From: Bacillota bacterium
Lineage (GTDB): Bacteria > Bacillota > Bacilli > Paenibacillales > UBA4045
DNA: 64,000 nt
Direction: 5' to 3'
Assembly: GCA_023441055.1 (NCBI GenBank)
Contig: JAEZQY010000029.1
Location: 207,328-271,327 of the forward strand
The notes beneath the pieces are model-generated. The model did no database searches. It had not been told where the DNA came from and saw nothing but the letters and a program-made list of their open reading frames with translations. Below are positions 2,781-35,076 of the stretch, one piece after another. Each line of letters opens with the position of its first letter. Position 1 is the first letter of the stretch. The translations under genes were made by a program, and so were the position numbers.

Positions 2781-5054
2781 CTAATCCTGCTGATTCAGCT
2801 TCACGATCAGCTTCTCTCCCTCGACGTCCAGGTTCGGCAGCAGGCGGTCAAGCCACTTCGGCAGCCACCAGGCCTTGCGGTCGAATATCGCCATAACCGC
2901 CGGCACCAAGGTCATGCGCACCAGGAAGGCGTCGATGAATATGCCGACCGTCAGCGCGAAGCCGATTTGCTTAATGATGATATCATCGGTGAAGATAAAC
3001 CCGGCGAACACAGATACCATAATCACTGCAGCGGCAAGCACAACACGACTGGCTTGATTGTATCCAAGCACGATCGACTCGGCCCCCCGATGGCCATGCA
3101 CGTAGGATTCGCGCATGGAACTGACCAGGAACACCTGATAGTCCATCGCTAATCCATAGAGAATCCCCGTAACGATGATCGGCATGAAGCTCAGCAGCGG
3201 TCCAGCCGTATCGAAGCCGAATACCGCGTGCAGCCAGCCCCACTGGAACACCGCTGTCGTACAGCCATACGTGGCCAATATGCTGAGCAGGAAGCCCACG
3301 GTCGCCTTGACCGGCACGACAACTGAACGGAATACCAGCATCAATATAAGTAAGGATAGAATCACAATAATGCCGATATAGATCGGGAATACATCGGCCA
3401 GCTTAGCCGACATATCGATATTGACTGCTGTAAAGCCTGTCACACCAAGCTGAATACCAGCAGTCTGCAGGAATTCGGAATCCAGATTGCGCAACTTCGT
3501 GACAAGCTCCTTGGTCTCCGTGTCCGTCGGACCCGTCTCAGGGGTCAGGCTGAATATCGCCAGACTGCCGGTCTCGTTCACCCCAAGCGGTGATACCTGC
3601 GCGACATTGTCCTGACTCTGTAGCTCCATAATCAGGCCGATCATCTGTTCAGGCGTGAACACGGATCCGGCATGCTGCTGCTCGGCAATCAGGACGAGCG
3701 GACCGTTCATGCCTTCGCCGAATGCCTCCGCAATGGCGTCATAGCTCTGTCTGGCCGCAGTATCCAGGTTCGCTGTAGCCGCCCCTGGAATGCCCATATC
3801 CATCTTCGCTGTGGGCAAGGACGCTGCCCCGAGCACAATAATGGTCCCGATGATGACGAGCCAGCGATGCTTCACGACGCCTCGAATCCACTTATCAGAG
3901 AATCCGCTCGCGGTACCCTTGCTCGATCGCTCTTGATTGCGCCGACGAGCCTTCTGCGAACAGATGCGTTCGCCGACCAGACCGAGCATGGCCGGCAATA
4001 GCGTCAAGGCTAGCAGCACATTGATGAACACCGTTGTTGCAGCTACCACTGCCATAGTCGATAGGAACGAGATATCGATGACCAGCATGCCGCATAGCGC
4101 GATAATGACCGTCAATCCCGCGAAGAACACGGCGCTTCCCGCTGTACCAACTGCTCTGCTCGCAGCCTCTTGCGCGCTTAGTTCCTGATCGAAGATCAGA
4201 CGGCGCTGCCGATTGACAATGAATAACGCATAGTCTATGCCTACCGCGAGGCCCACCATCAGGCCCAGGATGGCGGAGACGCTCGTCATCTCAATGAAGC
4301 GCGAGAGCGAGAAGGCACCGCCAACACCGATGCCCACTCCCAGCAGCGCGATCAGCAGCGGAAGACCGGCTGCTATAACAGAGCCTAACGCCAGCAGCAG
4401 GACAATGGCCGCGACAATTACGCCAATAATCTCTCCGTAGCCAAGCCCAATCTCGAATGGCAGCAGGGACTCGCTCGGCAATACGATCACGCCGGGCTGA
4501 CGCTCCACCGCTCGGGCCGCTTCGATAATGGCGTCCTTAACATCCTGCGGAACCAAACTGACTTCTTCCGTGAATTGAAATTGGAATAAGGCAATACTGC
4601 CATCCGCCGAGAGCAGCACCCCCGGCAGCGGATACCCATCCATCACCATATAGCCATACAGCGGTATCTGATAGCCGGGCACCTGCTGCGTCAGCATACT
4701 CAGCTCCTGAACACCCGCAGCATAGGTTGCCGGATTGACCACTTCTTCGAACTGATACACCTCGTTAATCGCCTGACCGATCGCAGCCATACGCTCGATC
4801 GTGTCCATTCGGTCATCTGTCGTGCTCTTGAACACGATGCTGCCCTGTCCGCCAGCAGCCAGCGGAAGCTCCTGGGCTAATTGATCCAGTATCCGCTGAG
4901 ATTCCGTGCCTTCAATAGACATCTCCTGACCGACATGGATGCCATTAGCCGCGATTAACGATATAACGATCGCTAATAGCAAGAGCCAGCTAGTTACGAA
5001 GTACCACGGCTTGCGGTAAGCGGTCTTGCCTATCCGGTATAAGAATGTAGACAT
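2781..5054 (-). CDS. MMPL/RND-superfamily membrane transporter
   Basis: 757 aa with two 6-TM bundles separated by soluble loops. Typical MMPL N-terminus (MSTFLYRIGKTAYRKPWYFV...). TetR gene immediately upstream. Confidence 0.85.
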   Translation of the reverse strand: MSTFLYRIGKTAYRKPWYFVTSWLLLLAIVISLIAANGIHVGQEMSIEGTESQRILDQLAQELPLAAGGQGSIVFKSTTDDRMDTIERMAAIGQAINEVYQFEEVVNPATYAAGVQELSMLTQQVPGYQIPLYGYMVMDGYPLPGVLLSADGSIALFQFQFTEEVSLVPQDVKDAIIEAARAVERQPGVIVLPSESLLPFEIGLGYGEIIGVIVAAIVLLLALGSVIAAGLPLLIALLGVGIGVGGAFSLSRFIEMTSVSAILGLMVGLAVGIDYALFIVNRQRRLIFDQELSAQEAASRAVGTAGSAVFFAGLTVIIALCGMLVIDISFLSTMAVVAATTVFINVLLALTLLPAMLGLVGERICSQKARRRNQERSSKGTASGFSDKWIRGVVKHRWLVIIGTIIVLGAASLPTAKMDMGIPGAATANLDTAARQSYDAIAEAFGEGMNGPLVLIAEQQHAGSVFTPEQMIGLIMELQSQDNVAQVSPLGVNETGSLAIFSLTPETGPTDTETKELVTKLRNLDSEFLQTAGIQLGVTGFTAVNIDMSAKLADVFPIYIGIIVILSLLILMLVFRSVVVPVKATVGFLLSILATYGCTTAVFQWGWLHAVFGFDTAGPLLSFMPIIVTGILYGLAMDYQVFLVSSMRESYVHGHRGAESIVLGYNQASRVVLAAAVIMVSVFAGFIFTDDIIIKQIGFALTVGIFIDAFLVRMTLVPAVMAIFDRKAWWLPKWLDRLLPNLDVEGEKLIVKLNQQD

Positions 5055-5247
5055 GCTATAAACGATTCCCTTCTATTCCTAGAGTCTAAATCAATTTCAT
5101 AACTACGCAAAACCTCTTAGCAGAGACTATATGCGACAACCGAGCTATGCGATTAGCTAACGGTTGCGCTGTATTGACAGAGTGGATCGTTCAGATCAAT
5201 ATATAGTTCCCATTCTAGCTGCTTAGGCATTTATGAAATTGATTCAT

Positions 5248-5856
5248 CTAATGATTGAATCCATTGCGTAGATACTCATAAATCTTATCCAGGTACTGTT
5301 GGAATGAGGTGTCTGATGACGCTTCATCAGGAAGCAGCACTTGCACGCTGCCGTTCAACACAGGCAATATAGCGCCATACACCGCTCCAACAAGCAGATG
5401 AATATAAGCCTCATCATGCTTCCCATCCGAAATCGCCATAAGCGTGTTATGCGCATCAATTTGAATGTGATGCATCTTGTTGAGGAAGAACGGGTGAAGA
5501 GACGGATGCTGAGCGCATAGCTGCATGAGCTGACTTAGCTTCCTAAGAAACGCCATAGTCATCTGCATGTGGATCAATTGGAACAGAACATCCAGCATCG
5601 GTGTTTCCTCATTCAGATTAGCGAGCCAATTCTCGATCTCGATCGTATCGTCAGATATCGAGGCTCCTGCAACGACTGCTTCCTCCTTACAGGAGAAATG
5701 ATTGGCGAACGTTCTTCTGGAATAGCCTGCTCGAGACACGACATCTTCGACTACGAATCCATCGAATCCCGCTTCCAACGCAAGCTCGAATGCAGCGTCG
5801 GCGAGTGCCTTAACCGTTGCCTCTCTCTTCATAAGCCGCAAGTTAGGTTTCTTCAT
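5248..5856 (-). CDS. TetR/AcrR family transcriptional regulator
   Basis: N-terminal TetR HTH (...FVVEDVVSRAGYSRRTFANHFSCKEE...). SD AAGGAG upstream of the ATG at 5856 (GTG at 5868 also possible). The listed ORF start at 6069 overlaps the upstream gene and is not credible. Confidence 0.8.
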   Translation of the reverse strand: MKKPNLRLMKREATVKALADAAFELALEAGFDGFVVEDVVSRAGYSRRTFANHFSCKEEAVVAGASISDDTIEIENWLANLNEETPMLDVLFQLIHMQMTMAFLRKLSQLMQLCAQHPSLHPFFLNKMHHIQIDAHNTLMAISDGKHDEAYIHLLVGAVYGAILPVLNGSVQVLLPDEASSDTSFQQYLDKIYEYLRNGFNH

Positions 5857-16320: not shown

Positions 16321-17277
16321 TCATCGGTCGATTCGTTCCGGAAGCCCCAATTGGGAAAATAAATTCGCATTAATAAAATTCTGAACGTGGAAAATGTGAT
16401 TGTTCTTCACTTCAATGACATGAATACCCCATGGCACCAAATCGGACGAATCCGGGCTGGGCACATACTGCGCCAACGCGGGATAACCGCCATTCACTAA
16501 TGTCGGCAATAACTTAGACCCGACACAATGCCACCGCGTCACCTCGAAGAACTTGGACAAGTCGTCCTGGCCACTTATCCACATTGCGAATGGCGGCATG
16601 GACATGCAGCCTTCCTCATGAAACAGGGCCACAAGTGCTTGAATATCGAATTGTTCGAAAGCCTCCACATAACGTGAGAGAAGTCCCTGATCGGGGACAG
16701 TATCCATCCTGCTGTATTCATCAGAGCGAAGCTTCGTTCGGTCCAGCGTCTCCCTGGCTCGCTGCAAGGCGCTGTTCACCGCCGCCGGTGACATAACTAA
16801 TGTCTCCGCGATCTGCTTCGACGACCATTCGAACACATCCTTCAGAATGAGCACCGCACGCTGGCGGGGCGGTAAGGCCTGCAAGAGCGCGATGAAGCAG
16901 AGCTGCAGGGTATCCTTGCGAACAACAACATCCTCCGGGCTTTCGCCAAACTCGGGTGATGGCCAAATCCAGGACGAATCGGGCAATGTTTCGCTAGGCT
17001 CGACTATGGAGGACGCCGGGTCTGACAGGTCCAGCGGAAGCACTCTGCGCTTGGCTTGCCTCAGCTTGTCCAAGCATAAGTTCGAGGCGATGCGGTAGAT
17101 CCATGTCTTCATGGAAGAATCCTGCCTGAACGTGCTCCAGCTTTGCCAGGCCCGAATATAGGTTTCCTGGACAACATCATCCGCATCATCGAATGAACCT
17201 AACATGCGGTAACAGAATGAGGTTAATCCGGGCTTTATGCGCTCAAATCCATTCAAATCAAATGCGGTATCGTTCAT
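16321..17277 (-). CDS. ECF sigma-70 factor with fused C-terminal SnoaL/NTF2-like domain (ECF41/ECF56-like architecture)
   Basis: Region 2 (DDADDVVQETYIRAWQSW), region 4 (LPPRQRAVLILKDVFEWSSKQIAETLVMSPAAVNSALQRAR) and a ~130-aa extension. SD GAAGGAGG places the start at the ATG at 17277. Confidence 0.8.
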   Translation of the reverse strand: MNDTAFDLNGFERIKPGLTSFCYRMLGSFDDADDVVQETYIRAWQSWSTFRQDSSMKTWIYRIASNLCLDKLRQAKRRVLPLDLSDPASSIVEPSETLPDSSWIWPSPEFGESPEDVVVRKDTLQLCFIALLQALPPRQRAVLILKDVFEWSSKQIAETLVMSPAAVNSALQRARETLDRTKLRSDEYSRMDTVPDQGLLSRYVEAFEQFDIQALVALFHEEGCMSMPPFAMWISGQDDLSKFFEVTRWHCVGSKLLPTLVNGGYPALAQYVPSPDSSDLVPWGIHVIEVKNNHIFHVQNFINANLFSQLGLPERIDR

Positions 17278-17324
17278 CTTTGCCTCCTTCATTGAGTACC
17301 CTTCGATCAGTTTCCCCTTTCCCC

Positions 17325-17353: not shown

Positions 17354-17396
17354 TAAAAAAAAGACAATAAAGGGAAAGCCCTATACGAGCTTTCCC
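17353..17396 (-). terminator. rho-independent terminator of the LytTR/ABC operon
   Basis: Minus strand: GGGAAAGC-tcgtatag-GGCTTTCCC followed by TTTATTGTCTTTTTTTTATTG. Confidence 0.8.
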
Positions 17397-17431: not shown

Positions 17432-18133
17432 CTACTCATCCTTCAATCGCTTCTGATACAACACAATCGACACAGCCTGGAGCACAACCGCCCATACCAA
17501 CATAATCAGAAGGGGCTTCCACGCCTGTTCAACGGAATAACCGGCAGTCAGCATCTCCACCAGGTGCATAAGCTGTGTGCTCGGCGCATACTCCAGCACC
17601 TTGAATATCGGGAAATCATCCACCAACAGGAAGCCGAATGGTGCTGCAGTAAACAGGATAAGGACTGGGAAGACAGACAAGGATGCCTCCATGACCGACT
17701 TCGAGAACAGGCCGCAAATGGTGCCGGCAGCTGTATATAGAATTGTTGAAATCACCATAGCTGTGAGGAAAACCCATAAGCCATTCGGCTCATACCCGTA
17801 TATGAACGTAACCGCTGCAAGCATGACAGCAGAGACCATGAACACCAAGGAGCTCTTCCCAATGAGCACATCCATAGTCGTAGCTGGTGTTAGCATTAAG
17901 GAGCGTAGCGTGTTGCGCTCCTTCTCTTCTGCGATGAGCGCGGCTTGCATAAAGCAGGATAGCATAGCGAATGTGAAGTTCAGGATAAAGCTAAATACGA
18001 GAATATCCATATCTTTATAGAGATAAGCGAAGGGCAGCGGAAACAGCATCACAATGGAGATTGCATAATTGCGCGTAAACTCCTTGTAATCCTTCACCAT
18101 AATTGCTCGAACACGTCTCATTGAGATGCTCAT
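17432..18133 (-). CDS. ABC-2 type transporter permease
   Basis: 233 aa, 6 TM helices. Its start overlaps the upstream ATPase stop by 4 nt. Confidence 0.75.
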   Translation of the reverse strand: MSISMRRVRAIMVKDYKEFTRNYAISIVMLFPLPFAYLYKDMDILVFSFILNFTFAMLSCFMQAALIAEEKERNTLRSLMLTPATTMDVLIGKSSLVFMVSAVMLAAVTFIYGYEPNGLWVFLTAMVISTILYTAAGTICGLFSKSVMEASLSVFPVLILFTAAPFGFLLVDDFPIFKVLEYAPSTQLMHLVEMLTAGYSVEQAWKPLLIMLVWAVVLQAVSIVLYQKRLKDE

Positions 18134-18984
18134 ATCAGCTCACTCCCTGTCATTTTAATGAAAATATCGCCTAAACTCGGTTCCTTCGTCTCTAGCCGTT
18201 CAATGAATCCTCGCTTCATCCAATCCGCAATGCGATCAGCTGTCTCATCACCAATTGGCAGCTCGTAGATCTCGCCGTTATTCAATTCGACACGAACGAG
18301 CTCCTCGCGATTCTGTCTCTTCAGCTCCTTAGGCGTGCCAATCGCCTGGATCTGTCCGCGATACAGAATCGCCACACGGTTGCATAGCAGCTCAGCTTCT
18401 GTCATATCGTGCGTCGTCAAGAAGATCGTAGTCCCCTGCTCGTTCAGGTAGCGCAATCCCTTGTAGATATGCATGGTGTTGACAGGATCAAGCGCAGAGG
18501 TCGGCTCATCCAGGAACAGCAATTCCGGCTTATGAATAATTGCGCATGCTAACATGACCCGCTGACGCATACCCTTGGACAGAACGCTTACACGCTTCTT
18601 GCGCTCTCCAGCTAAATTGACAAACTGCAGCACCTCATCAATAGCGGACTTGGGGAGATCATATAATTGACGGAACATATCCAGATTCTCCTCAATCGTC
18701 AGCCGCTCATACAGACCGCTGTTATCCGTCAGAATACCGAATCGCAGCTTCTGATCCGATTGGCGCATCTGCTTCGACGACAGCCCCAGGACGCTCGCCT
18801 GCCCGCTCGTCTCTTCCAATTGTCCGGTTAAGATCTTAATTAATGTCGTCTTACCTGCGCCGCTCGGTCCTAGAAAACCGAAGATCTCTCCTTTGGGGAT
18901 CGAGAACGATACATTAGATAAGGCATCCTGGTTCCCGAATCGCTTTCGAATCTGTTCAACCTTGATCACATCCATACTCGCCAC
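18130..18984 (-). CDS. ABC transporter ATP-binding protein
   Basis: Walker A GPSGAGKTT, signature LSKGMRQR, Walker B LLFLDEPTSALD, H-loop TTHD. SD AAGGAG. Confidence 0.9.
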   Translation of the reverse strand: MASMDVIKVEQIRKRFGNQDALSNVSFSIPKGEIFGFLGPSGAGKTTLIKILTGQLEETSGQASVLGLSSKQMRQSDQKLRFGILTDNSGLYERLTIEENLDMFRQLYDLPKSAIDEVLQFVNLAGERKKRVSVLSKGMRQRVMLACAIIHKPELLFLDEPTSALDPVNTMHIYKGLRYLNEQGTTIFLTTHDMTEAELLCNRVAILYRGQIQAIGTPKELKRQNREELVRVELNNGEIYELPIGDETADRIADWMKRGFIERLETKEPSLGDIFIKMTGSELI

Positions 18985-19114
18985 TCCTTATGTGTTGATG
19001 GCTTAAGCATAGTAGGATTCCACTCTTCCAACCATCAAAACAGGATGAATTGTAGCGATTTTGACCTGAAGTGTACCCTAGCGGGCCTGAATGGTTCCAT
19101 TATTTCCGGGGAAA

Positions 19115-20056
19115 TCAGATGTTGAGGAGTGTCTTTAATTCCTGCAGCTTCGAGCGGGATAGCGGAACAACGGCATCCTTGCCTGTACTTAATCGCAAGC
19201 TGTAGCTATTCTTCGTCCAGGTGATGATCTCTCTGACCTTCTGTAGATTAACGATGTAGGAACGATGGCATCTGAAGAATCCGTAATGCTGCAAGCGCTC
19301 CTCGAGCTCGGTCAGCGTCATTGCGCAGTCATAGTTCTCTCCGCCGACATGTACGACGATCGAGCCTTCTATACTTTCTATATAATCAATTTCCGGCGGG
19401 TTAAATACGATCACTTTATCATTTTTCTTCGCAGCAATTTTCTGAATAGTAATGGTCGCTTGGTCCTGCCCTTGTCCCTGCTCTTCCTGCTTCTGATCTT
19501 CCGTGTCCCGGATATCCAGCTGAAGAAGACCGGATTCTCCTAGCCGATAAATCTCATTGCAAGATATCAGGGCATCCTCTAGGTTTGATGTTAAAATCAA
19601 CACCTTCTTCTCTCTCGATAGATCATCTAGAATTCGCTTGAAGTTTCGACGATCCTGTTCCTCCAGATAGAAGTACGGCTCCTCCAGCACAATTGTTGGC
19701 TGATGCGCGAAGTAGACACGCAGCAGCGTCACATACATACGCTTCGAGGCGCTTAAATTTCTCAGTTTCACCTTGCGCTCCTCTTGCAAGGAGAAGTAGA
19801 CAAGCAGCGCATCGACGCTCTCCCCTCTTCCGCTGACATCAACAAGAAATTTCACGAGCTCTGCCACTGTCAGTCGCACATACTCGCCTTGATTAGCCTG
19901 GAATAGATACGCGCTCCGCAGATCCGCTAATTGGTCTATGAGAAGCTGCTTACGCTGCACATCGGTAAGGATGCCAATCGGCAGATTGTTCTGTGTATTC
20001 AGTTCAATTTCCGGCAGCAGCAAGCTGCCATTATGATAGATAGGTTGAAACTTCAT
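19115..20056 (-). CDS. LytTR DNA-binding regulator fused to a degenerate (P-loop-less) ABC-ATPase-like N-terminal domain
   Basis: C-terminus ...GFFRCHRSYIVNLQKVREI...VPLSRSKLQELK is a LytTR domain. The N-terminal ~200 aa align with the neighbouring NBD, but Walker A is GILTDVQRKQ, the signature is LSASK, Walker B is IVLEEP and the H-loop is TSN. SD GGAGG before the ATG at 20056. Confidence 0.75.
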   Translation of the reverse strand: MKFQPIYHNGSLLLPEIELNTQNNLPIGILTDVQRKQLLIDQLADLRSAYLFQANQGEYVRLTVAELVKFLVDVSGRGESVDALLVYFSLQEERKVKLRNLSASKRMYVTLLRVYFAHQPTIVLEEPYFYLEEQDRRNFKRILDDLSREKKVLILTSNLEDALISCNEIYRLGESGLLQLDIRDTEDQKQEEQGQGQDQATITIQKIAAKKNDKVIVFNPPEIDYIESIEGSIVVHVGGENYDCAMTLTELEERLQHYGFFRCHRSYIVNLQKVREIITWTKNSYSLRLSTGKDAVVPLSRSKLQELKTLLNI

Positions 20057-20209
20057 AAGGTCCTCCAGAAAAAAAGCGTTGATTATACCCCTTGAACTGG
20101 GCAGCTGCCATCCTTCCATTACATGCGAAGGGACTCTGATTCGAACAAGCGGCTATCTCTTATTTTGTACGTCCGCTTATCTTTTGGCAAGGGAATCTTA
20201 CAAGCATCC

Positions 20210-20238
20210 TTGCTTTTGTAGACCGATCGGTTTACACT
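20210..20238 (+). promoter_or_regulatory. candidate promoter TTGCTT-N17-TACACT with embedded 16-bp palindrome (likely TetR operator)
   Basis: TAGACCGATCGGTTTA (20219-20234, one mismatch from perfect) fills the spacer upstream of the DUF1348-tetR operon. Confidence 0.4.
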
Positions 20239-20270
20239 AAACCATATCGTATAGAATTGGAGTGATTGAA

Positions 20271-20732
20271 ATGAAAGCACTCGCACCTCCATTTACCCGG
20301 GAGACCGCTATTCAGAAAGTGCGGATGGCTGAGGATAGCTGGAACAGCCGTGACCCTCATCGCGTATCGCTTGTCTACACAGAGGACAGCCGCTGGCGGA
20401 ACCGAACCGAATTTCCAGTTGGACGAGACGAAATTGTGGATCTTCTTACAAGGAAGTGGGCTAAGGAGCTGGACTACCGGCTAATCAAGGAGCTATGGTC
20501 ATTCACCGACAATCGCATTGCAGTGCGCTTCGCATATGAATGGCATGATGACAGCGGGAATTGGTTCCGCTCCTATGGGAATGAGAATTGGGAGTTTGCC
20601 GCCGACGGCTTAATGAAGCAGCGTTATGCATCGATTAATGATATGCCCATTCAGGAATCGGAACGCCTATTCCATTGGACGCTCGGTCAACGTCCAGATG
20701 ACCATCCCAGTCTTAGCGACCTTGGCTTATGA
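20271..20732 (+). CDS. DUF1348-family (NTF2-fold) protein
   Basis: ...[48 protein letters not shown]...[10 protein letters not shown].... ATG at 20271 follows a GGAGTG SD. Confidence 0.65.
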
Positions 20733-21304
20733 CCCGTACCGTCTTAGAGAAAGCCGACGTCATTCCGAGGGTGGCTGAAGTATTCCGCGAGCTTGGTTAC
20801 GAAGGTGCATCCATGACCAAAATTACATCCCGCACTGGCATTTCTAAAGGCAGCTTGTACTACTTCTTCCCCGGAGGGAAGGACGAGATGGCAGCGGAGA
20901 TCCTATCGCATATCGATACATGGTTTGTCGAGCATATCTTCAAGCCGCTTGAACGCGATGAACCCCAGGCCGCCATTCAGAGGATGTGGCGTGAGGTGGA
21001 TGTATATTTTCATTCGGGGCAGCGAATATGTCTTGTAGGGGCTTTTGCTCTCGACGAAACGCGAGATCGGTTCGCCGTAACTATACACCATTATTTCAAT
21101 AGGTGGATCGATGCTTTACAGGCTGCTTTGGTTCGCGCAGGGGCTTCAGCGGATACAGCCGCTTCGCTGGCAGAAGAAGTGATTGGAGGGATTCAGGGTG
21201 GGCTGATCCTTGCCCGAGCGCTTAATGATGAACGGCTTTTCAAGCGGACGCTCTCACGTCTAACTGATCAGATATCTGCGGTTATGGAATTCGAACCGGA
21301 TTGA
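20729..21304 (+). CDS. TetR/AcrR family transcriptional regulator
   Basis: HTH ...[32 protein letters not shown].... ATGA overlap with the upstream gene. Confidence 0.85.
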
Positions 21305-22475: not shown

Positions 22476-22946
22476 TCATTCTTGTGTTAAATTTATAATG
22501 ACCTCTTTAGGAGTATAATAATCGCAATTTGTAATTACTTTAAATCCCTTGTCCCAGGTTAGCACAGGAATCCCTTGTTCCTTACTTATAACACTTAGTT
22601 TTATATCAATCAAATCCAGCTTAAGAGTCGGATACAACTTCAGAGTTTCACGTATTGTTGCACTTGCCTCAACACCGTCTGCTTCAATAAGAACTGTGAT
22701 CATCTTCGCAATTCTCTCACGAGGTACTTTATACATCTTTTCCATTACAAATACCATTTCTTCAACGACGGCATCAGAAAAGACAAGTATGATCTTACCT
22801 TCATTTATAAGTCGAACAAGCTGTTTTGTATAGGTGACCATACTTGTAATCATTTCCTCTTGCGCATCACTAACCGCTGCCGCAATATCTTGATCGCCAA
22901 CTAGAATTCTTAACCCTATGTTGGCATCTGCTGTGAACTTTCGCAT
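22476..22946 (-). CDS. PIN-domain (VapC-like) toxin
   Basis: N-terminal acidic motif (..TADANIGL..) and C-terminal ...LDLIDIKLSVISKEQGIPVLTWDKGF.... Lies 17 nt downstream of an AbrB-type antitoxin gene. Confidence 0.6.
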   Translation of the reverse strand: MRKFTADANIGLRILVGDQDIAAAVSDAQEEMITSMVTYTKQLVRLINEGKIILVFSDAVVEEMVFVMEKMYKVPRERIAKMITVLIEADGVEASATIRETLKLYPTLKLDLIDIKLSVISKEQGIPVLTWDKGFKVITNCDYYTPKEVIINLTQE

Positions 22947-22963
22947 AAAAATTTCTCCCCCTA

Positions 22964-23239
22964 TTATGTCTGACGGGCCAAGTCATCAGCAATCATCTCC
23001 TCACGGTATTGATCTCTGACTTCTCTTACGTCTATCAACGGTTGATCGAGATCATCCCAGATCCCAAACGCATCTAATATTGATTTTCTTTTAATGCCAC
23101 GAACAATTACTTCATCACCAATATATTCAAACTCTAACCTATCGCCCTCTCCAATACCGAGTATATTTCTAAGTTTAATAGGTATCGCAACAACTCCCTT
23201 AGCCGACAACTTTCCAGTCTCTACTTTGTAATTTTCCAT
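22964..23239 (-). CDS. AbrB/MazE/SpoVT-family antitoxin
   Basis: SpoVT-AbrB swapped-hairpin motif ...KGVVAIPIKLRNILGIGEGDRLEFEYIGDEVIV... Confidence 0.7.
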   Translation of the reverse strand: MENYKVETGKLSAKGVVAIPIKLRNILGIGEGDRLEFEYIGDEVIVRGIKRKSILDAFGIWDDLDQPLIDVREVRDQYREEMIADDLARQT

Positions 23240-26700: not shown

Positions 26701-28218
26701 CGTGCCCGTCGGGCCCGGTAAATTCCCCGCGAACGCGCCTATCGTCCTTACGCCATTATAGGTGCCTGTTCTTAAACTTAACAGAACATTGGTCCCATCC
26801 TGGAAGCTTAGATTAAACGTATTCTGAGGGGTGGCAACTGCTGGAACCTTCCAGTCAAGATTCGCATATACCTTACTGCCGGAGACGGCATAAGGTAAAT
26901 CCCCTTTACCGCCGCGGTTACCCGAGCCGGACGCGTCAAATCTGAAGTAATAATTGGCTAGAGGCGCATCTTCCCTGGCAAGCGTATGGTAAGTGCCGCC
27001 GGCGAATATCCATAGCGGGCTGGCAGCATCTCCAGCGAAGTTGCTGCCGAACTCCAGCGTGTACCCTTCCGCTATCAGGGCGGAGAAGTCTGGGGTAGGT
27101 TCAGCTGTCGACGGAATATAGTGGACATGGATCGGTACGCTATCCGTGATGGCGTCATCCATATTGGATACAGCTGTAAGAATCGCATCCCCCTCGCCAA
27201 TCGCGGTAACCGTTACACTGTTATCCTCATTGACAACGATGGCTGCAATTTCTTCGTCACTGATCGACCACGTGAACGTCCTGTCGGTTGCATTAACCGG
27301 CATGACAACCGCGCTGAACGAGGCTGAATGCTTATCGGCCAGCGAACCTTCTCCATATTCCAAACTCGCGGAGGTCGGAGATATCGTTAGTTCGCTTGGG
27401 TTTATGATCGGTTCCTCTAAGCCGGACGAAGCAGCCTTGAATTGGATATTATCAACGCGCATCCCATAGGTGTTCTCATCCCATTCGATGCCCTCTACGG
27501 CATTAAATCTTGCCCAGTTCTGTCCGCTTGCCCTGCTCGCGCCTATCTGCATACTGGTCAAACTATCTGAGCCTATTGCGATTGGCTGCGGCGTGGTGTA
27601 TGTCCTCGCATCGCCATCAGTCATACTGATTGACGCCTCTTGTAACCGAAGATCAACATTCATCGTTACCGAAAGCTTCGTCAGGCGCGGTACTCCTGTT
27701 AGTGCCGTAGTGGCGCTTCCAACCGCTGGAGCATTATTAGCGGCCATGTTTCCTGTGTAATAAGATAAGGTCGCCGGCGAGTTTGCATTCGTACCACCTC
27801 CGGCGCTTCGGAGCGTTAGTACTTGATCATCGCCGCTGTTTAGCCGGACATCCAGTGAGTTAGCGCTAGGTCGGGTAATGTCCACCCACCAGTCGAAGGT
27901 TACTTCAACAAGATCGTTACCGGTTAGGTCATAATCGCCGCTATCAAGGGGCAGCGTCCACCAATAACTAGCCCCGCCGCTTGATGGAGGCTGTACACGA
28001 AGCACATTGGAGTCCATATTCTCCACCGTAATTGAACCAGGACCACTTGCTTCCGGAGCCCCGACCACTGTCCCTGCTAACTCTCCATCCTCAAATTGCA
28101 ATATGCTGCCCACTTGGATGAAATCAGGTGATGCACCCGATACCCATGCAGGCATAAGCATAATCACCAGTGAGAATGAGAGAAGTATAGCTGTATACCT
28201 CCTAAACCTTCCTTTCAT
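23785..28218 (-). CDS. multidomain secreted rhamnogalacturonan lyase (PL11, YesW-like) with long N-terminal extension, Big_2 domain and C-terminal helical (FIMAH-like) tail
   Basis: The core matches YesW-type beta-propeller sequence (...TANDVSVADVNGDGQYEILVKWYPS...WRINLGINIVSSAHHSAFNFYDLDQDGIAELAIKTADGT...). Big_2-like TFTWSISDEEIAAIVVNEDNSVTVTAIGEGDAIL. SD GGAG before the ATG at 28218, then a signal peptide. Confidence 0.8.
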   Translation of the reverse strand: MKGRFRRYTAILLSFSLVIMLMPAWVSGASPDFIQVGSILQFEDGELAGTVVGAPEASGPGSITVENMDSNVLRVQPPSSGGASYWWTLPLDSGDYDLTGNDLVEVTFDWWVDITRPSANSLDVRLNSGDDQVLTLRSAGGGTNANSPATLSYYTGNMAANNAPAVGSATTALTGVPRLTKLSVTMNVDLRLQEASISMTDGDARTYTTPQPIAIGSDSLTSMQIGASRASGQNWARFNAVEGIEWDENTYGMRVDNIQFKAASSGLEEPIINPSELTISPTSASLEYGEGSLADKHSASFSAVVMPVNATDRTFTWSISDEEIAAIVVNEDNSVTVTAIGEGDAILTAVSNMDDAITDSVPIHVHYIPSTAEPTPDFSALIAEGYTLEFGSNFAGDAASPLWIFAGGTYHTLAREDAPLANYYFRFDASGSGNRGGKGDLPYAVSGSKVYANLDWKVPAVATPQNTFNLSFQDGTNVLLSLRTGTYNGVRTIGAFAGNLPGPTGTNPANFWSGERYHAFDYTEVDSWYTVGIVFDFDTMMATVSLVPRDDVTEAPSVVSLPFEGSQISSFVLTGERAATQNINVVDNGIDNLYFFTKPLSEDTITEVLPYDFLPERPGAADSNSWQSWFKTVYIGDVADESGLNLPTAVNVKVAGGSTESVGVTWELTEVPWSKIPAELVYDPDEQGVFSYEGTLISVPDVAVERMGLKAKLHIENRHRDKITSLPYSMEWLDRGVVAVPENSGEGILVTWRLLASEYNMGATFNVYRNGVKVNGSPITTLNYMDADGHAGDSYVVETVNTGAISKPAETWVHNYMDIPLQRPADRPNPALAYGATSNADPITYTANDVSVADVNGDGQYEILVKWYPSQAQDPGLANRHTGETIFDLYTLEGKLLWRINLGINIVSSAHHSAFNFYDLDQDGIAELAIKTADGTRGYLPKADGTIDDRTDTPAWVLGDPSAVWVGGLANPAMDNQVNNTALGRVASGPETFTVFHGGTGQPVDTVDYFAPYAISPNWGDNNNNRSDRFNGAVAYMPKNGLPGAEPYPTVIEVRGHYGPHFVAAYQFIDGEIVEIWSFKLADWNAGNNQGNHNLQVADLDFDGYQEVVLGGITLDHDGTIVWSTNGTRGTVAGGHGDALHVAAMVPDSNEIYVFQPHESGPPNNVSLVRGSTGEPVWTYSANLGDVGRGVAANVTAMPGFEVWASGTPMYNMASGKLITTEVGDIGVANKAPVNFILYWDGDLLSEFFDGPDNLNATQPPSITKLIYDNATGHSELVTLQALTGTYSNNGTKANPSLIADILGDWRDEVLVRTSDNNALRIYTTDIPTDHVIYTLMHDPLYRMAVNAQNAMYNQPAHLGFYLGEDIRNDVQNRQLPVPNAYYTVDGEQGDLSVLENLLNDYIQSGDVAGSIVNRLKNALKQAKHHDEKGSTKQAIHFITKFLGELDHLTKKDTLSPLARQHLFYQASLLLQQWQAE

Positions 28219-28335
28219 ACGCTTCACTCCTCGTTTTAATAGATTTAGTGCTTGATACAAATTGTATCAATACGGAGTGTCGCAATTGAACTCAAAAATC
28301 AGTGAATCCCTATCAATAATCAGACATAGACCGAT

Positions 28336-29142
28336 TTACTTCATAGGCTGGCTGGATTGCATGGCATGACTCTTATAATCCGTAGGTGAGACACCGAACT
28401 GCTTCTTGAACATTCTGCTGAAGTAGAATTGATCACTGATTCCAACCGCTGAAGCGACCTCCTTCATATAGGTCTGGCCTTTCATAATTAATTCCGCTGC
28501 CTTGTTCATCCGTATATAATTGATATATTGAAATAAGCTCATCCCTACTTGCTCCCTGAATACGCGGCTCAAGTAGTTCTCGCTGAAATTAACATGATTC
28601 GCGATCATTTCTAATGTAAGCTTATCCCGGTAATGCAACCCGATATAGCTAATGACATCGGCAATTTCTTTCTTAGTCACAGTCGAATCAACAGCTCCAG
28701 GAGCATCTGTCCAGAAGCTCAGAGTATCAAAGGCTTCCACGGCGTTCGTTAATACCGCCTCTGAGCTTTTACTTTCCCATACCTTGGTTTTATTCGCCTC
28801 ATATTGCTCAGCATTCATCACTGTAATTTTATTGTCGCTTAGCGGGATATAATCCAAGCATTTGTTGATGCAGGTTTTCAGTGCCGAAGGATGAATCCGA
28901 TGCTGATGGCATTGTTCTATAAAGGTTTCTACCATCAGCGGAATAGAAGCACTATCATCATTATATAAAGAAGACAGAATGGATTTGGAGAAATCCACAT
29001 AGTTCATGAATGCGATGTCATGATGGAAGACGATGTCATCGCAACGGATAACGGAATGTTCTTCATAGAAGGTAATCGCGATAGCTTCTTTACAAGCCTG
29101 ATACTTCTGCCTAGCCTCTTGATAACCGTATAGCTCCAGTCT
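28336..29142 (-). pseudogene. AraC-family (possibly YesN-type) regulator, 5'-truncated
   Basis: The C-terminal AraC HTH is intact (...NYLSRVFREQVGMSLFQYINYIRMNKAAELI...ISDQFYFSRMFKKQFGVSPTDYK). The frame stays open 45 codons upstream of the listed ATG (29007) to a TGA at 29143-29145, with no start or RBS. Composition changes abruptly there. Confidence 0.6.
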
Positions 29143-29191
29143 TCATTGTTGGTGTGCTATTACGCATTGATTTTCCGCGCCTAGTGTATAT

Positions 29192-29316
29192 ATGTTAATG
29201 TCACAAGACGCGAAAATAGGAATGTTTGTGTCACAGGATCACTACAAAAACATTCCTACGTAAATAGTGGATAGCCATGATGTTATACTATTCTTAAAAT
29301 GTATGTTGGTGTCACT
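29192..29316 (+). repeat. three direct copies of ATGTTnnTGTCAC at the island's left edge, plus a 10-bp inverted repeat
   Basis: atgttaatgtcaca (29192), atgtttgtgtcaca (29222), atgttggtgtcact (29303). aggaatgttt/aaacattcct flank the second copy. A weaker copy, ttgttggtgtgcta, lies at about 29147. Confidence 0.6.
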
Positions 29317-29421
29317 GTATACCCCTTCACTCTTCATTATAAACAATAGTCCGATCCTAAATTGATAGATTTTCTAGTCCAGAACTTGTCCATAATCGCC
29401 AAATGCCTAAACAAATGATTC

Positions 29422-30108
29422 CTACCTGCTATCAAAATGGAGGTAAGCATGCTTAAGTTGTGCTTTATTATGAATATTTTTTTCTTGATAGTTTATATTG
29501 AAATTGTCGATGATTATGGCTGCCGCTTTTCCGCTTAAGTCTTCCTCCCACCCATCAACACCAAGTATTTCTTTAGCCTCTTCATCATTTGAAAAAACGA
29601 TGATTGGATCTCTTAAATCGTGGGATAATCTCGGCAAGTTGTTAGACGTGGCTTCATCAACTGTAAAGAGTAGCGTTCCCTCCCCTGTTGCATCAATATC
29701 TGTATACAGGAATTTTCCTGTTAAAATAGTTGTGCCAGTGAATTGAATAGTTCCAACTGGTATATCATCCGAATGAGATATGTTTAATTCCTCCACCTCC
29801 ATGCCGGCAATTGTGTTTCCCCTTTTTGTATTATTGGCGGAGAATATATTCGTATCATTAATGGTGATTGTTTTATCCGATTCATTATAATTTACTCTTG
29901 CACCTAGATTCTCAGCAATAAATCTTACAGGGACATACGCCCTATTATTGTAATTTATCGTTACATACCCTTCTTCTACATTCATTTTGTGATTATTTAT
30001 CTCGTATGAAACTGGGAAAAGAATTGCTTCTATAGAATCTTTAGCGTAAACAATTGATGAAGAAAATATAGTTACTAACCCAAGAACTAATAATATTTTA
30101 TTCTTCAT
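29422..30108 (-). CDS. secreted copper-amine-oxidase N-terminal (stalk) domain protein
   Basis: Signal peptide MKNKILLVLGLVTIFSSSIVYA|KD and ...NNRAYVPVRFIAENLGARVNYNESDKTITIN.... Start taken at the ATG at 30108. Confidence 0.65.
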   Translation of the reverse strand: MKNKILLVLGLVTIFSSSIVYAKDSIEAILFPVSYEINNHKMNVEEGYVTINYNNRAYVPVRFIAENLGARVNYNESDKTITINDTNIFSANNTKRGNTIAGMEVEELNISHSDDIPVGTIQFTGTTILTGKFLYTDIDATGEGTLLFTVDEATSNNLPRLSHDLRDPIIVFSNDEEAKEILGVDGWEEDLSGKAAAIIIDNFNINYQEKNIHNKAQLKHAYLHFDSR

Positions 30109-30124
30109 AATGGACCTCATTTCA

Positions 30125-31717
30125 TTATTTATAGAACAAATTGAAGGTTTTATCGATAATATTACCAAGTTCTTGGCCACGAACTTGATTTTCTAAAAAT
30201 TCAGCTATTTTAATATCGAAGTCTTCATCAATATTTTTTGAAAATGTACTGTTGAGGAATAAATCGTTATATTGTTCAGAGTCAGCTAAATTAAATAAAT
30301 CTAATATCTTATGATAAAACCATACCGAATCTAATGTTTCTTCGTTATTGATACCGGCCTGATAACCCCATTGTATCCAACTATCTTGCAATTTAACAGC
30401 ATTGTCAAACAGGGTAGGAAAAAGCATGGTTTTGAATTCTTCATATTCTTTTGACACATTGAAATCTTCTATTTCTGTGTACATATAATTTTTGTATTCA
30501 TTCCAATGAATATTAAAACTCTCCATCTGGTCTTTATCCCAGTAATATTCTGGTTCATGTGAACGTGGATCAAACTTGGAAATAGGTCTTCCCTCTTTAT
30601 CTACATAATAGGACCAGTAATTACTTCCAGTTACATTATTAATGATTCGCCATAAAGAAACACTTTCTAGTGAATGGTAATGATCAGTGGGAATCGGCTC
30701 TAAATCCTGGGAAATCAATATTTCATTTCGTCCCACAAGTTTTGGGGCGATTATTAAGTGAGCTTCATACTCATGTTCTTCACTTAAACTGTTTGTCCTG
30801 TGTATGGCATAAAAAGTAGTGTCATTTAAAGGTTCGGGGACAAATTCAATAAAGTCCTTTGAAACAAATCCCTCGTATTCATTTATAAAGGGGTTTTTCT
30901 CCATACTACTGTCGTGATCTTCCATCATAGATGTAGCATCTTCGTTTAATATATGAATGCGTATTTTATAATATTCTGTTCCTTCATCGGACAGGATGAT
31001 CCCGCTCTCTCCCCTCATTAACTCAAACCATTCCTCGGTTCCCTTAATATCTTTAAGAAAGGGAATGTTGTTGTCGTTGATATAAAATACTTTATCTTCG
31101 CCCTTATACTTTGGCATGATTAGGCTTTTTTCGCTCCTATCCACCTCGTTAATCCATGTTGTCTTCATCTGTGTAGTCAATTTATTCGGACTCAGAACTA
31201 GTTCTTTCGTGGATTCATATTTCGACCCATCGACAAACGTCAAGTTATCCGGGAGATAAAGTATTACAAGTTCAGGCGGCAAGGTTTGATTGATTGATCC
31301 TATTGATATTTTGTTATTATCTATCGAGTAAAAGTAATTATTTAGATTTGATTCGGAATTTTCCATTCCAATAGGTATATATCTCCCGCCCTGAAAAAAG
31401 TAAACCCCATAATCGGAGTTCTCCGCAATGTCTTGACCGAAAGTTATTTCAATTTTTTGATCCAAGGAGGAACTATAATTAATTATAGAATTATCAAAAT
31501 CATTGTCGTTATACAGCCCGTATTTAAACCCTGGGATTGTTATTGATACAATGCTCTTCCCTCTCTCGTCTTGTTGTGGGCTTACGCTTATCTCATTATG
31601 CTTAAGTTCCGACAATCTCGGGTAATAAAACACTAAAGTGCAAATAGCAACAATTGCTATGGAGATCCATATATATCTTTTATAGTTAATGATAATCCCT
31701 CCTCGTTCATACAACAA
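30125..31717 (-). CDS. N-terminally membrane-anchored hypothetical protein (about 530 aa), no recognisable family
   Basis: One TM helix (YIWISIAIVAICTLVFYY), then a Tyr/Asn/Glu/Asp-rich extracytoplasmic body. Long uninterrupted ORF within an operon. Start codon uncertain (see findings). Confidence 0.6.
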   Translation of the reverse strand: MLYERGGIIINYKRYIWISIAIVAICTLVFYYPRLSELKHNEISVSPQQDERGKSIVSITIPGFKYGLYNDNDFDNSIINYSSSLDQKIEITFGQDIAENSDYGVYFFQGGRYIPIGMENSESNLNNYFYSIDNNKISIGSINQTLPPELVILYLPDNLTFVDGSKYESTKELVLSPNKLTTQMKTTWINEVDRSEKSLIMPKYKGEDKVFYINDNNIPFLKDIKGTEEWFELMRGESGIILSDEGTEYYKIRIHILNEDATSMMEDHDSSMEKNPFINEYEGFVSKDFIEFVPEPLNDTTFYAIHRTNSLSEEHEYEAHLIIAPKLVGRNEILISQDLEPIPTDHYHSLESVSLWRIINNVTGSNYWSYYVDKEGRPISKFDPRSHEPEYYWDKDQMESFNIHWNEYKNYMYTEIEDFNVSKEYEEFKTMLFPTLFDNAVKLQDSWIQWGYQAGINNEETLDSVWFYHKILDLFNLADSEQYNDLFLNSTFSKNIDEDFDIKIAEFLENQVRGQELGNIIDKTFNLFYK

Positions 31718-31718
31718 T

Positions 31719-31748
31719 CATATAGGAGGGCATTCCCCCTCCTATATG
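31719..31748 (-). promoter_or_regulatory. intercistronic 12-bp-stem hairpin between the M23 gene and the 530-aa gene
   Basis: catataggaggg-(6 nt)-ccctcctatatg, followed on the minus strand by ATTGTTGTATG. Confidence 0.5.
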
Positions 31749-31784
31749 ATTCCTGGTTTACACAAATTCATCGTTTCTTAGGGA

Positions 31785-33092
31785 CTAGTGTTCTATATTC
31801 CTAATAAAATCTCCTTCTACATTAAGTCTAGTTTGATTCTTATCTTGGAAGTTTCCAGACACAAGGTATTCCTTACCTACGGAAAGCTCAGGGGCAAGAG
31901 CTGGGTATAACACATTAATGACATAGCTATCATCATTTGAAATTACTTCCCATTCATTTTCCCCTACATTTCTCACCAGTTCCACGCTGTTAATAAAATC
32001 GAACTCCAGGACGTTCACTGTATCAGGGATGTCCACTTTAACTGGTTCTACTGCAGTGGCATACATAGATTCCGTATAGATATCGGAGTTAGCACCCTTC
32101 GCTAGCAATGAAGTGCTTACAAAGAATGGTCTATCCGTAGGGGCCTGATTATCATACCGGTATGGTCTATATCCTGTATAATATGTTGTCCCATTATACG
32201 AGTTGTTCTCTGCCTCGACGTAGTATTGGAGGGTATCAGAGGTCCCATAGAGAGGTGTTAAGTTGCCTGTAAATGTGATATCATCTGATGCTACCGTCAT
32301 AGATGTACTACTCCATGATGTCATGTTACCATTTTTATAGAACAGCTTTACCTTACTCGGAGGGGATGTTCTTAAGACACCACTATAAATTGACTGGATT
32401 TGAAACGTTACCGACGATGAACTTGCTGCTGTTCTTGTTATAAAGGACATCTTATTTGCATAACTTCCACCCTTATGTTGGTAGAAGTATGATGGCGCAT
32501 ATCTTTTCATGGTATTTGTATCAGTAGCTGAGGCACCTCTAAATTCTAAATGCAAGTGAATCGGATAAGAGCTCTCCGTTGTGCCTGATCCACCTGTTTG
32601 ACCAATATTCGTTGTATTTGTTACGGAAGTAGCGCTAGTAACGTTAACACTTGCTAAATGTGCATAAAAAGACTGCACATAGTAATCTGTTCCCCCAGAG
32701 GTTACTTTGTGTTGGACAAGGGCATATCTACCATATGTGCTTCCTAATGTAGTCCTTAATTGGTAGACCTCCCCGTTCCCTAGAACACTGAAAGCATCTC
32801 TACCAGCCGTTCCTGTAGCATTCCTTGAACGTAAATCAACACCAGCATGACCGGATGTTCGGGGCTCGCTATATGGTGCAGTAATAACTACATCATCGTC
32901 GGTGCCTGTACCTGTGTCTCCAACTCTTAATGCGCTCTTCGCATTAATTGTTACTGAACTAATTGTAGGATACCCTGACTCTGATACTTCATCCGCTTCC
33001 ATGAATAGGTGTGCTGCGAAACCCGCTGAAGGGAAAACTGAAATAACCATTAATAGTACCATTAAGAAAGAAAAAGCATGACGAATTTTCAT
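31785..33092 (-). CDS. secreted M23-family metallopeptidase with unassigned ~250-aa C-terminal extension
   Basis: HxxxD (GHAGVDL), YAHL, and HxH (IHLHLEF) motifs. Signal peptide ...VFPSAGFA|AH. SD GGAGG before the ATG at 33092. Confidence 0.75.
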   Translation of the reverse strand: MKIRHAFSFLMVLLMVISVFPSAGFAAHLFMEADEVSESGYPTISSVTINAKSALRVGDTGTGTDDDVVITAPYSEPRTSGHAGVDLRSRNATGTAGRDAFSVLGNGEVYQLRTTLGSTYGRYALVQHKVTSGGTDYYVQSFYAHLASVNVTSATSVTNTTNIGQTGGSGTTESSYPIHLHLEFRGASATDTNTMKRYAPSYFYQHKGGSYANKMSFITRTAASSSSVTFQIQSIYSGVLRTSPPSKVKLFYKNGNMTSWSSTSMTVASDDITFTGNLTPLYGTSDTLQYYVEAENNSYNGTTYYTGYRPYRYDNQAPTDRPFFVSTSLLAKGANSDIYTESMYATAVEPVKVDIPDTVNVLEFDFINSVELVRNVGENEWEVISNDDSYVINVLYPALAPELSVGKEYLVSGNFQDKNQTRLNVEGDFIRNIEH

Positions 33093-33575
33093 CTTCAATT
33101 CCTCCATCTTCATTTTTTTAAAAACTCCCAACTTCGCTCTTAACCAGATGAAAGGGCAGCTATAAACCTTTGTTATCCATTCGCATGACCCCCAATTATC
33201 ATTTATTAGGCGACTGGAAAGTGTGAAACTAAATTATGACGGCCTTACTTATATAGACTTATGGTTCGTCTCCCTTATAACGTTTTCATAACTAATTACT
33301 ATTCTAAACAATGTCCATCTTCTAATAGTGTTTCTATCATGCAATCGTTCCGACAGAAGAATAACGAATCATTGCCGCAATATGAAGATTGTAAACTCAG
33401 ATCATAAGGGGAACTACCCGAAGGAATATTGTATTATATATTTAACATCAAGCTATAAAGTCCAAACTATAATATCATTATATGTAATTGGGTCATTCTC
33501 GAAATATTGGTGTGATTTTGATCTCTCATATTCATATTCTTATTTAGAATTAAGAGAAGGGACAGTGCTAATGAA

Positions 33576-34911: not shown

Positions 34912-35037
34912 GAAGGAGGATATCCCCTAGGGGTTCTGATAGTTTTTTAATTGAAGAGAAACATGCATTCCGTTCCCTTTAGATGATTCCCTAGAATAAG
35001 TACCCGCTTTTTGGTGATTTACTTATACAAATAGTTG

Positions 35038-35063
35038 ATTCCCCGCAGTAAGCTGCGGGGAAT
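35038..35063. terminator. hairpin between convergent genes
   Basis: attccccgcag-taag-ctgcggggaat. Confidence 0.5.
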
Positions 35064-35076
35064 CATAAAGGAAAGA

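Follow-up and report, generated by a model that had tools for sequence, protein, structure and literature searches.

Positions 207,328 to 271,327 of contig JAEZQY010000029.1 (assembly GCA_023441055.1; a Bacillota bacterium of the Paenibacillales lineage UBA4045), a stretch of 64,000 nucleotides referred to here as the window, contain three genes arranged head to tail on the minus strand (Table 1). The first encodes a protein, hereafter the fusion, in which a degenerate nucleotide-binding domain (NBD) of the ATP-binding cassette (ABC) type is joined to a LytTR DNA-binding domain; the second and third encode a genuine ABC ATPase and an ABC-2 family permease. At the level of sequence, our analysis establishes the fusion as a regulator of the LytTR type whose input domain has a non-catalytic NBD fold and which is in obligate genomic partnership with the ABC-2 permease, and the direct repeats in front of the transporter genes as their candidate operator of LytTR type.

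The pseudo-NBD/LytTR fusion and the transporter genes

Translation of the fusion starts at ATG 20056, preceded by a GGAGGA ribosome-binding site, and the corresponding N-terminus (MKFQP or MQFQP) is common to 74 full-length orthologues, a set of intact proteins dominated by Paenibacillaceae. The exact protein occurs on five contigs, one of which is a 357-kb metagenome-assembled contig with the same neighbour genes, and its closest relatives (73–75% identity) all come from Paenibacillus or Fontibacillus.

The LytTR domain that the original prediction, made from the sequence without database searches, had placed at the C-terminus is matched by PF04397 with E = 1.9e-27 and 95.8 bits (cut-off, 22.6) over residues 213–311. 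A sequence search of the PDB paired this part of the protein with 3d6w and ComE (4cbv), and it was modelled as a beta-rich fold at a predicted local distance difference test score (pLDDT) above 90. Across a 105-sequence family alignment (A1), on which the AlphaFold2 model of the fusion (pLDDT, 92.3) was built, H264 of the LytTR domain is invariant and the neighbouring GFFRCHRSY residues are nearly so. Pfam gave no Response_reg match to the fusion, the NCBIfam matches BtsR and LytR are limited to its LytTR part, and the gene neighbourhood contains no kinase gene.

The N-terminal domain (N-domain) had been claimed to align with the neighbouring NBD and to have lost every catalytic motif. It is not matched by the Pfam ABC_tran profile (PF00005), so that of the two profiles suggested for checking the prediction, LytTR alone hit the protein, though two NBD profiles from NCBIfam do match (CcmA, E = 2.6e-8, residues 59–159; DrrA, E = 2.8e-6). 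In a PDB sequence search, LptB chains were found at 1e-3. BLASTP against the ATPase encoded next door paired its residues 88–204 with residues 55–169 of the fusion at E = 2e-7 (28% identity, 120 aa). When the modelled N-domain was compared with the PDB using Foldseek, the top matches were exclusively ABC nucleotide-binding domains, among them LptB (4qc2_A: E = 1e-10, probability 1.0, template modelling score 0.62 by target length, root-mean-square deviation 3.3 Å, 207 columns), MalK, ModC and PotA, with E values of 1e-10 to 1e-11 for LptB, MalK and others. The structural likeness to NBDs on which the prediction had been staked beforehand is hence present in the model.

To map the motifs, the neighbouring ATPase was added to the family profile alignment, which reproduced the predicted degeneration throughout. 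The ATPase has GPSGAGKTT as its Walker A, with which (GIL)TDVQRKQ-L of the fusion is aligned; the signature LSKGM is replaced by LSASK, the LDEP of Walker B by LEEP, and the TTHD of the H-loop by TSNL, the His thereby becoming Asn. Moreover, about 24 residues of the beta subdomain that follow the Walker A helix in the ATPase are deleted. Read from these features, the N-domain is an ABC NBD fold predicted to be devoid of both ATP binding and catalysis. The linker that connects it to the LytTR domain is predicted to be disordered over about residues 183–205 (pLDDT 51–61); its sequence is conserved all the same (0.86 over the 74 orthologues).

The next two genes are the normal ATPase and ABC-2 permease that had been anticipated. 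The ATPase open reading frame (ORF) spans 18130–18984 and reaches a GTG at 18984; the start is called at MDVI, as it is in all orthologues, and the real one is most likely ATG 18975. Its product has all motifs intact and is matched by ABC_tran (E = 1.4e-32), by the DrrA1-3_C C-terminal domain and by TIGR01188 (E = 6e-72), with ABCA3 and ABCA1 as its best PDB matches. The permease gene, the first 4 nt of which are shared with the end of the ATPase gene, encodes a protein matched by ABC2_membrane_3 (E = 9.7e-14) and ABC2_membrane_2 (E = 1.6e-10); a sequence search for a related solved structure found none. As also predicted, a terminator-like hairpin follows the permease gene. Directly downstream of it lies a sigma-70 family gene (16321–17292, minus strand) whose product has an NTF2/SnoaL-like C-terminal domain, as in SigJ-type extracytoplasmic function (ECF) sigma factors.

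Table 1. Features of the fusion–transporter locus, in window coordinates.
Feature	Position	Strand	Basis or detail
Pseudo-NBD/LytTR fusion gene, 313 aa	19115..20056 (stop codon included)	−	ORF, start, orthologues
N-domain, residues 1–182, NBD fold with degenerate motifs	19511..20056	−	Profile, BLASTP, AlphaFold2 model, Foldseek
Linker, residues 183–212, acidic, Gln-rich	19421..19510	−	Low-pLDDT block
LytTR DNA-binding domain, residues 213–311	19124..19420	−	PF04397
Promoter-like site of fusion gene, ATGGCA-18 nt-TATAAT	20082..20111	−	Consensus scan
Direct repeat R0, GAACCATTCAGG	19086..19097	−	21 bp upstream of R1
Direct repeat R1, GTACACTTCAGG	19065..19076	−	At least 80% conserved, 72 loci
Direct repeat R2, CTACAATTCATC	19044..19055	−	9-bp core ends 6 bp before −35
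Internal promoter of transporter genes, TTGATG-18 nt-TACTAT	19009..19038	−	Read from sequence, conserved
Genuine ABC ATPase, 281 aa, DrrA/ABCA type, all motifs intact	18130..18975	−	ABC_tran, TIGR01188, PDB
ABC-2 family permease, 233 aa	17432..18133	−	ABC2_membrane_3, ABC2_membrane_2
Intrinsic-terminator-like hairpin ending the unit	17372..17396	−	10 pairs (6 G-C), loop of 5, tail TTTATTG

Conservation and gene linkage across the family

A word-indexed search with the fusion returned 1303 clusters at 90% identity, and an exhaustive search of 50%-identity representatives yielded 4342 matches at E ≤ 1e-3, many of them to the LytTR domain only and 95 of them below 1e-30. More than 100 of the 50%-identity representatives, 290–350 aa in length, can be aligned with everything beyond about residue 50 of the fusion and hence share both domains. 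Named members stem from Paenibacillaceae, Jeotgalibacillus, Tenuibacillus, Lysinibacillus, Kurthia and Staphylococcus equorum, and are annotated solely as 'LytTR family ... domain-containing protein' or 'ABC transporter ATP-binding protein'. How widely the architecture occurs had been raised with the original prediction; judged by these matches, the fusion belongs to a large, uncharacterised family across Bacillota and is not an isolated oddity. Full-text searches of the literature, which did not cover the original LytTR description and later commentary, gave no study or characterised example of such a fusion, in line with the original prediction, which named none.

Within A1, a Walker A of the form GxxGxGK[ST] is missing from 98 of the 105 sequences. 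Six representatives retain it, usually together with LLLDEP (P0167, P0219, P0246, P0248, P0258 and P0259); none of these has the H-loop His, their signatures are irregular, and they probably bind ATP without hydrolysing it efficiently. The entire family looks non-catalytic or poorly catalytic, forming a gradient from ATP-binding-competent to fully dead members of which the window protein, by its motifs, is the dead end.

The mean majority fraction over the 74 orthologues is 0.87 for the N-domain versus 0.92 for the LytTR domain, and the former Walker A stretch (IGIITDLKRKQLL) is at least 90% conserved. With conservation of the N-domain, this stretch included, falling so little short of that of the LytTR domain, the pseudo-NBD is under strong constraint, not decaying, and selected for something besides ATP chemistry. 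Features kept across A1 are the YxRLT block at the start of the helical subdomain (its Y in 90/105), the variant signature L[ST]xS[EQ][KR][RK]R, the Walker B residues EEP (their P in 96/105) and an acidic residue in the D-loop (81/105). From general knowledge of ABC structures, we take the conserved NBD positions to lie on the surface apposed to the partner NBD and at the site where the coupling helix of the membrane domain is accommodated. The degeneracy of all catalytic motifs would also be expected if the N-domain were evolutionary debris, i.e. the functionless, decayed remnant of a duplicated ATPase gene; this is barely credible, as the conservation of the N-domain among intact orthologues in effect refutes it and both the number of family clusters at 50% identity and the confident AlphaFold2 model speak against it. 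Duplication was further addressed by comparing ten fusions with ten ATPases in a BLAST matrix, in which the cognate partner was not preferred. Recurrent duplication and pair-specific co-evolution of fusion and ATPase are not supported by this result and, because of it, a single old origin of the fusion family appears more likely than repeated duplications.

The gene order fusion–ATPase–ABC-2 permease was found in ~70 of 80 species genomes, in 50 of the 51 evaluable non-redundant metagenome loci (35–74% identity; counting loci with enough flanking DNA) and, among eight distant relatives looked up, in six of the seven whose contig reached the downstream genes. In five Paenibacillus species, the ATPase gene is internally deleted with five different breakpoints (L021, L038 from P. 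faecis, L046, L054 and L079, at about 4936–5215 of each locus). Two of these five deletions are in frame and leave a mini-ORF, and all five loci keep the operator, the promoter and the last ATPase codons with the permease ribosome-binding site. In a Saccharibacillus locus (L064, 5000–6970), a TetR/SDR pair replaces the ATPase gene, and a 216-nt gap stands in its place in L102, suggesting another deletion. Two further loci consist of two genes, fusion and permease: L163, whose fusion is 40% identical and has degenerate motifs, and L090, whose fusion has Walker A and B intact. On this count, the true ATPase gene would have been lost repeatedly and independently in about nine lineages in which fusion and permease stayed, and the converse, an ATPase kept with the permease lost, was seen in none of the 80 + 51 loci. 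By gene content, it is the permease rather than the ATPase that invariably accompanies the fusion, and the pattern of ATPase loss suggests that the obligatory partner is the permease and not flux driven by ATP.

One might suppose that a fusion with an intact Walker A serves as the only ATPase of its system. This idea was rejected, as P0167, P0219 and P0258 still have a separate ATPase gene, and among the Walker-A-intact members looked up only L090 is without one. Further irregular loci comprise L080 (Paenibacillus motobuensis, 4001–5623), where the fusion is truncated with loss of its LytTR half, the permease remains and an unrelated ORF on the opposite strand occupies the expected ATPase position, as well as L004 and L013, in which the ATPase gene is split.

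Repeats and promoters at the fusion and transporter genes

Fusion and ATPase genes are separated by a gap of 139 nt, most positions of which are 80–99% conserved over 72 loci whose proteins are only ~70% identical. Within it lie the three direct repeats R0, R1 and R2 (19097–19044), phased at exactly 21 bp start to start, followed in order by the internal promoter, the ribosome-binding site and the ATPase start. R0 is missing in four listed species with a gap of 110–111 nt (L004, L016, L026 and L027). The pattern ACNNTTCA-N13-ACNNTTCA is confined to this gap within the 64 kb, where it has two overlapping occurrences. Distant operons carry other repeats at the same place and with the same phasing, e.g. 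GGTACAnTTCAACGGAAAA, CTCCAYTCAYC and GCCAGTYGTCG. In an unbiased search, the best repeat pair fell at a spacing of 21 in 7.5 of 13 loci and at spacings of 20–22 in 7.7 of 13 (shuffle mean 1.4, maximum 5.4); in the metagenome set, a spacing of 21 was best in 23 of 65 loci (shuffle mean 2.4, maximum 5.5). LytTR regulatory systems (LRS) use 9-bp repeats with a 12-bp spacer, placed a few bp upstream of the −35 element (PMC6193735). R0–R2, which match this arrangement in phasing and −35 placement, are conserved and have counterparts in distant operons, are our LytTR-type operator candidate.

The original prediction had sought LytTR-type repeats upstream of the fusion gene instead. The two sequences it named, AGATAAGCG (20182–20174) and AGATAGCCG (20158–20150), do exist as a pair that is 7/9 identical and 24 bp apart; their role as operator was rejected, as they are weak, lie 38 bp from the −35 element, were not picked up by the repeat finder and fall in a region not conserved in other species. 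Repeats of 21-bp phasing are absent upstream of the fusion gene, both in the window and in its orthologues. What most Paenibacillus orthologues do have at the place equivalent to the promoter-like site of the window is a conserved near-consensus CTGACA-17-TATAAT with a 5′ leader. The claim that the fusion heads the transporter operon stands as far as gene order is concerned; as a single unit it does not, given the fusion's own sigma-A-type promoter and the second conserved promoter in the 139-nt gap. Based on these elements, we conclude that fusion gene and transporter genes form two transcription units, the first of which would read through into the second.

The internal promoter is weak, matching the consensus at 8 of 12 positions and falling below the threshold of the consensus scan. 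Taken with the repeats, it makes the transporter promoter the most likely LytTR target, most likely activated rather than repressed. The opposite sign would have the fusion repress the internal promoter or act as a roadblock to read-through, with release from the DNA once the fusion engages the transporter. Read-through should exist, as no terminator lies between the fusion and ATPase genes, and an 11-nt inverted repeat (TGTGTTGATGG at 18991–19001, CCATCAAAACA at 19032–19042) brackets the internal promoter, its left arm containing the −35 element. Yet the direct repeats lie upstream of −35 and overlap neither −35 nor −10 nor the start site, the weak promoter with its 18-nt spacer resembles those of activator-dependent LytTR systems (PMC6193735), and the inverted repeat lacks compensatory changes, so that repression seems quite improbable and we retain activation of the transporter genes as the favoured sign. 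Both arms of the inverted repeat are conserved over the 72 loci, where variation is either pair-breaking or one-sided (wobble) with no compensatory change. On these grounds, and since an Rfam scan of 18800–20400 found no match at E up to 1, an RNA element in the gap was rejected.

The same intergenic regions contain further inverted sequences. The palindrome ATTTCCCCGGAAAT (19102–19115, minus strand) overlaps the fusion stop codon and is partly kept as ATTTCCGGGGNAAT in most orthologues; its loop is too short for a terminator. In several Paenibacillus species (loci L012, L013, L015, L018, L028, L031 and L046), a 40-nt hairpin element, AAATGTTTGCGAAGCAAACATAACTTCGTAAGCATATGCC, is inserted just after the stop codon of the fusion gene and ahead of the repeats; L018 has four tandem copies of it (about 4937–5100). 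The element has the look of a small repeat of the repetitive extragenic palindrome (REP) or miniature inverted-repeat transposable element (MITE) kind. On its other side, the fusion gene shares the intergenic region 20057–20261 with a divergent operon on the plus strand (20262–21304), which encodes a DUF1348/SnoaL-like protein and a TetR regulator; a perfect-looking palindrome in this shared region (TGTAGACCGATCGGTTTACA, 20217–20236) is likely the TetR operator. Genes for a MazE-like (AbrB/SpoVT) antitoxin and a PIN-domain toxin adjoin at 22476–23239 (minus strand). The GC content drops to 0.34–0.40 at about 28000–36000 of the window, compared with ~0.50 elsewhere, and this segment may be horizontally acquired.

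A proposed transporter-coupled circuit and its known relatives

We propose that the fusion, expressed from a sigma-A-type promoter of its own, acts as a one-component transcription factor of the LytTR type. Its LytTR domain would bind R0–R2, immediately upstream of the weak internal promoter, and the bound fusion would activate transcription of the ATPase and ABC-2 permease genes. The pseudo-NBD would dock on the cognate transporter and thereby set the activity of the fusion, with the permease site normally taken by an NBD as the primary contact and the genuine ATPase perhaps contacted too, via the retained signature and D-loop face. Permease state or occupancy would then decide how much fusion is free or competent for DNA binding, in a circuit resembling a membrane-inhibitor or trigger-transporter circuit. 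DNA binding to R0–R2 and docking on the transporter, with the direction of the signal, are steps that we infer from sequence; docking is made plausible by the strict gene linkage and by the retained positions of the helical subdomain, signature and D-loop. Taken as a whole, i.e. own promoter, activation of the internal promoter and activity set by docking, this reading is in our judgement about evenly poised between right and wrong.

The original prediction had gone further and likened the system to flux sensing by Bce modules. Strict flux sensing of this kind is less likely than sensing of permease state or occupancy, because lineages without the ATPase gene keep fusion, operator and permease. 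A bolder version of the proposal, to which we attach only tentative belief, is that the NBD fold itself has become a signalling domain: the pseudo-NBD would sit in the coupling-helix site of the ABC-2 permease, whose conformational or substrate-binding state would directly gate DNA binding. The transcription factor would in effect be a removable 'subunit' of the transporter, and the permease of ATPase-less lineages a pure receptor.

Several observations weigh against the proposed circuit. The N-domain is as similar to foreign as to cognate ATPases, leaving pair-specific co-evolution unsupported, though similarity is a weak test of it. The activating sign is deduced solely from the position of the repeats and the weakness of the promoter. 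A fusion:ATPase heterodimer would impair both composite ATP sites, and any contact between the two proteins would therefore be regulatory at best. Lastly, L080, L004 and L013 are clearly decaying, and some of the ATPase losses may likewise reflect decay instead of a selected state.

The missing pair-specific signal would also fit a regulator that works independently of the transporter, in which the pseudo-NBD is a mere dimerisation domain or a pocket for a cytoplasmic ligand that pairs the LytTR domains, and the transporter genes are just the target. LytTR proteins require two DNA-binding domains on successive repeats, NBDs naturally dimerise, and regulator genes frequently adjoin their targets. 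We nevertheless hold this to be rather unlikely: without Walker A, ATP-driven NBD dimerisation is impossible, and a transporter-derived domain beside the same type of transporter in every evaluable locus, with permease retention strictly favoured over that of the ATPase, exceeds the usual adjacency of regulator and target.

Another possibility is feedback on assembly or stoichiometry. Here, a permease homodimer would carry two unlike NBDs, of which the fusion is the non-catalytic, structural one; free fusion would switch the transporter genes on, and newly made permease and ATPase would titrate it away, with neither substrate nor flux being read. Two NBD-type genes per permease gene are indeed the rule, the signature-like motif and the D-loop are retained as in degenerate-site heterodimers, and some members have Walker A and B, none the H-loop His. 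Moreover, the fusion's own promoter is free of repeats, so that the fusion is presumably not autoregulated. Set against this, the window protein would leave both ATP sites of the heterodimer defective and hence make a poor energising subunit, lineages without an operon-encoded ATPase retain the system, and a pure homeostat does not account for how strongly the former Walker A surface is conserved. We consider assembly feedback unlikely.

Should the proposed circuit hold, a transcription factor has apparently taken over the fold of a transporter's motor domain for its input. Some hundreds of genes that now carry the label 'ABC transporter ATP-binding protein' or 'LytTR family regulator' would gain a function, and pseudo-enzymes serving as sensors would gain a clear example. 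On the bolder version, the family would represent a widespread but so far unrecognised class of signalling in Bacillota, one-component and transporter-coupled, as well as an evolutionary bridge between ABC transporters and systems of LytTR regulator and membrane inhibitor. With one permease and one ATPase as partners, and with promoter and candidate operator delineated, the three genes form a compact, genetically tractable system for studying how transporter state is passed on to gene expression, for which the natural ATPase-less variants are ready-made controls. Any practical pay-off hinges on the transporter substrate; exporters of the ABC-2/DrrA type frequently transport antibiotics, lantibiotics or ions.

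To our knowledge, the sensing of transporter activity is understood in few systems (MalK–MalT, PhoU/Pst and BceAB–BceS), all of which use separate signalling proteins. Control of an ABC-2 exporter by a LytTR protein has a precedent in Bacillus subtilis, where NatR controls the ABC-2 transporter NatAB. With NatR and other LytTR response regulators (AgrA, LytR, BtsR), the fusion shares the DNA-binding domain and the logic of 21-bp repeats; unlike them, it has neither a receiver domain nor a nearby kinase gene, and an NBD fold takes the place of the input domain.

The LRS, exemplified by HdrRM, BrsRM, SMU_433/434, SMU_1070c/1069c and lmo0984-0987 (PMC6193735), pair a non-phosphorylated LytTR regulator with a controlling membrane protein, a role that the permease may play here by analogy. 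Several LRS are co-transcribed with ABC transporter genes, and the arrangement of their repeats relative to −35 is the one seen in the fusion–ATPase gap (PMC6193735). In contrast to the fusion with its 180-aa NBD-fold input domain, LRS regulators are small proteins with little besides the LytTR domain. Their inhibitors are of the DUF3021/DUF2154 type, whereas the sole membrane protein at the fusion locus is the ABC-2 permease, with the ATPase gene in between. In addition, the repeats of LRS precede the regulator gene and mediate its positive autoregulation, while those described here lie downstream of it, before the transporter genes.

In Bce modules (BceAB–BceRS, PMC4513084), the transporter senses for its own induction, and the permease might do something comparable here. 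Their permease is of the FtsX type, with ten transmembrane segments and a large extracellular domain, and works with a histidine kinase of the intramembrane class and a regulator of the OmpR type. The fusion locus encodes no such protein; the ATPase-less lineages of the fusion family also speak against a strict need for flux. A transporter also serves as sensor in the maltose system of Escherichia coli (PMC6906923), where MalK, the NBD subunit of the idle transporter, contacts the activator MalT and keeps it inactive. There, a catalytic NBD equipped with a regulatory domain binds a separate activator; in the fusion, the NBD-like domain is itself part of the activator. The heterodimeric exporters TM287/288, TAP and CFTR (PMC7756269) also retain a non-catalytic NBD as partner of a catalytic one. 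Their degenerate NBDs still bind ATP and are fused or dedicated to a transmembrane domain, whereas Walker A is wholly missing from the fusion and a DNA-binding domain is attached. The combination of domains is visible in database annotation and therefore not new as such; what we add is its reading as a putative transporter-coupled one-component regulator with a defined candidate operator in front of the transporter genes.

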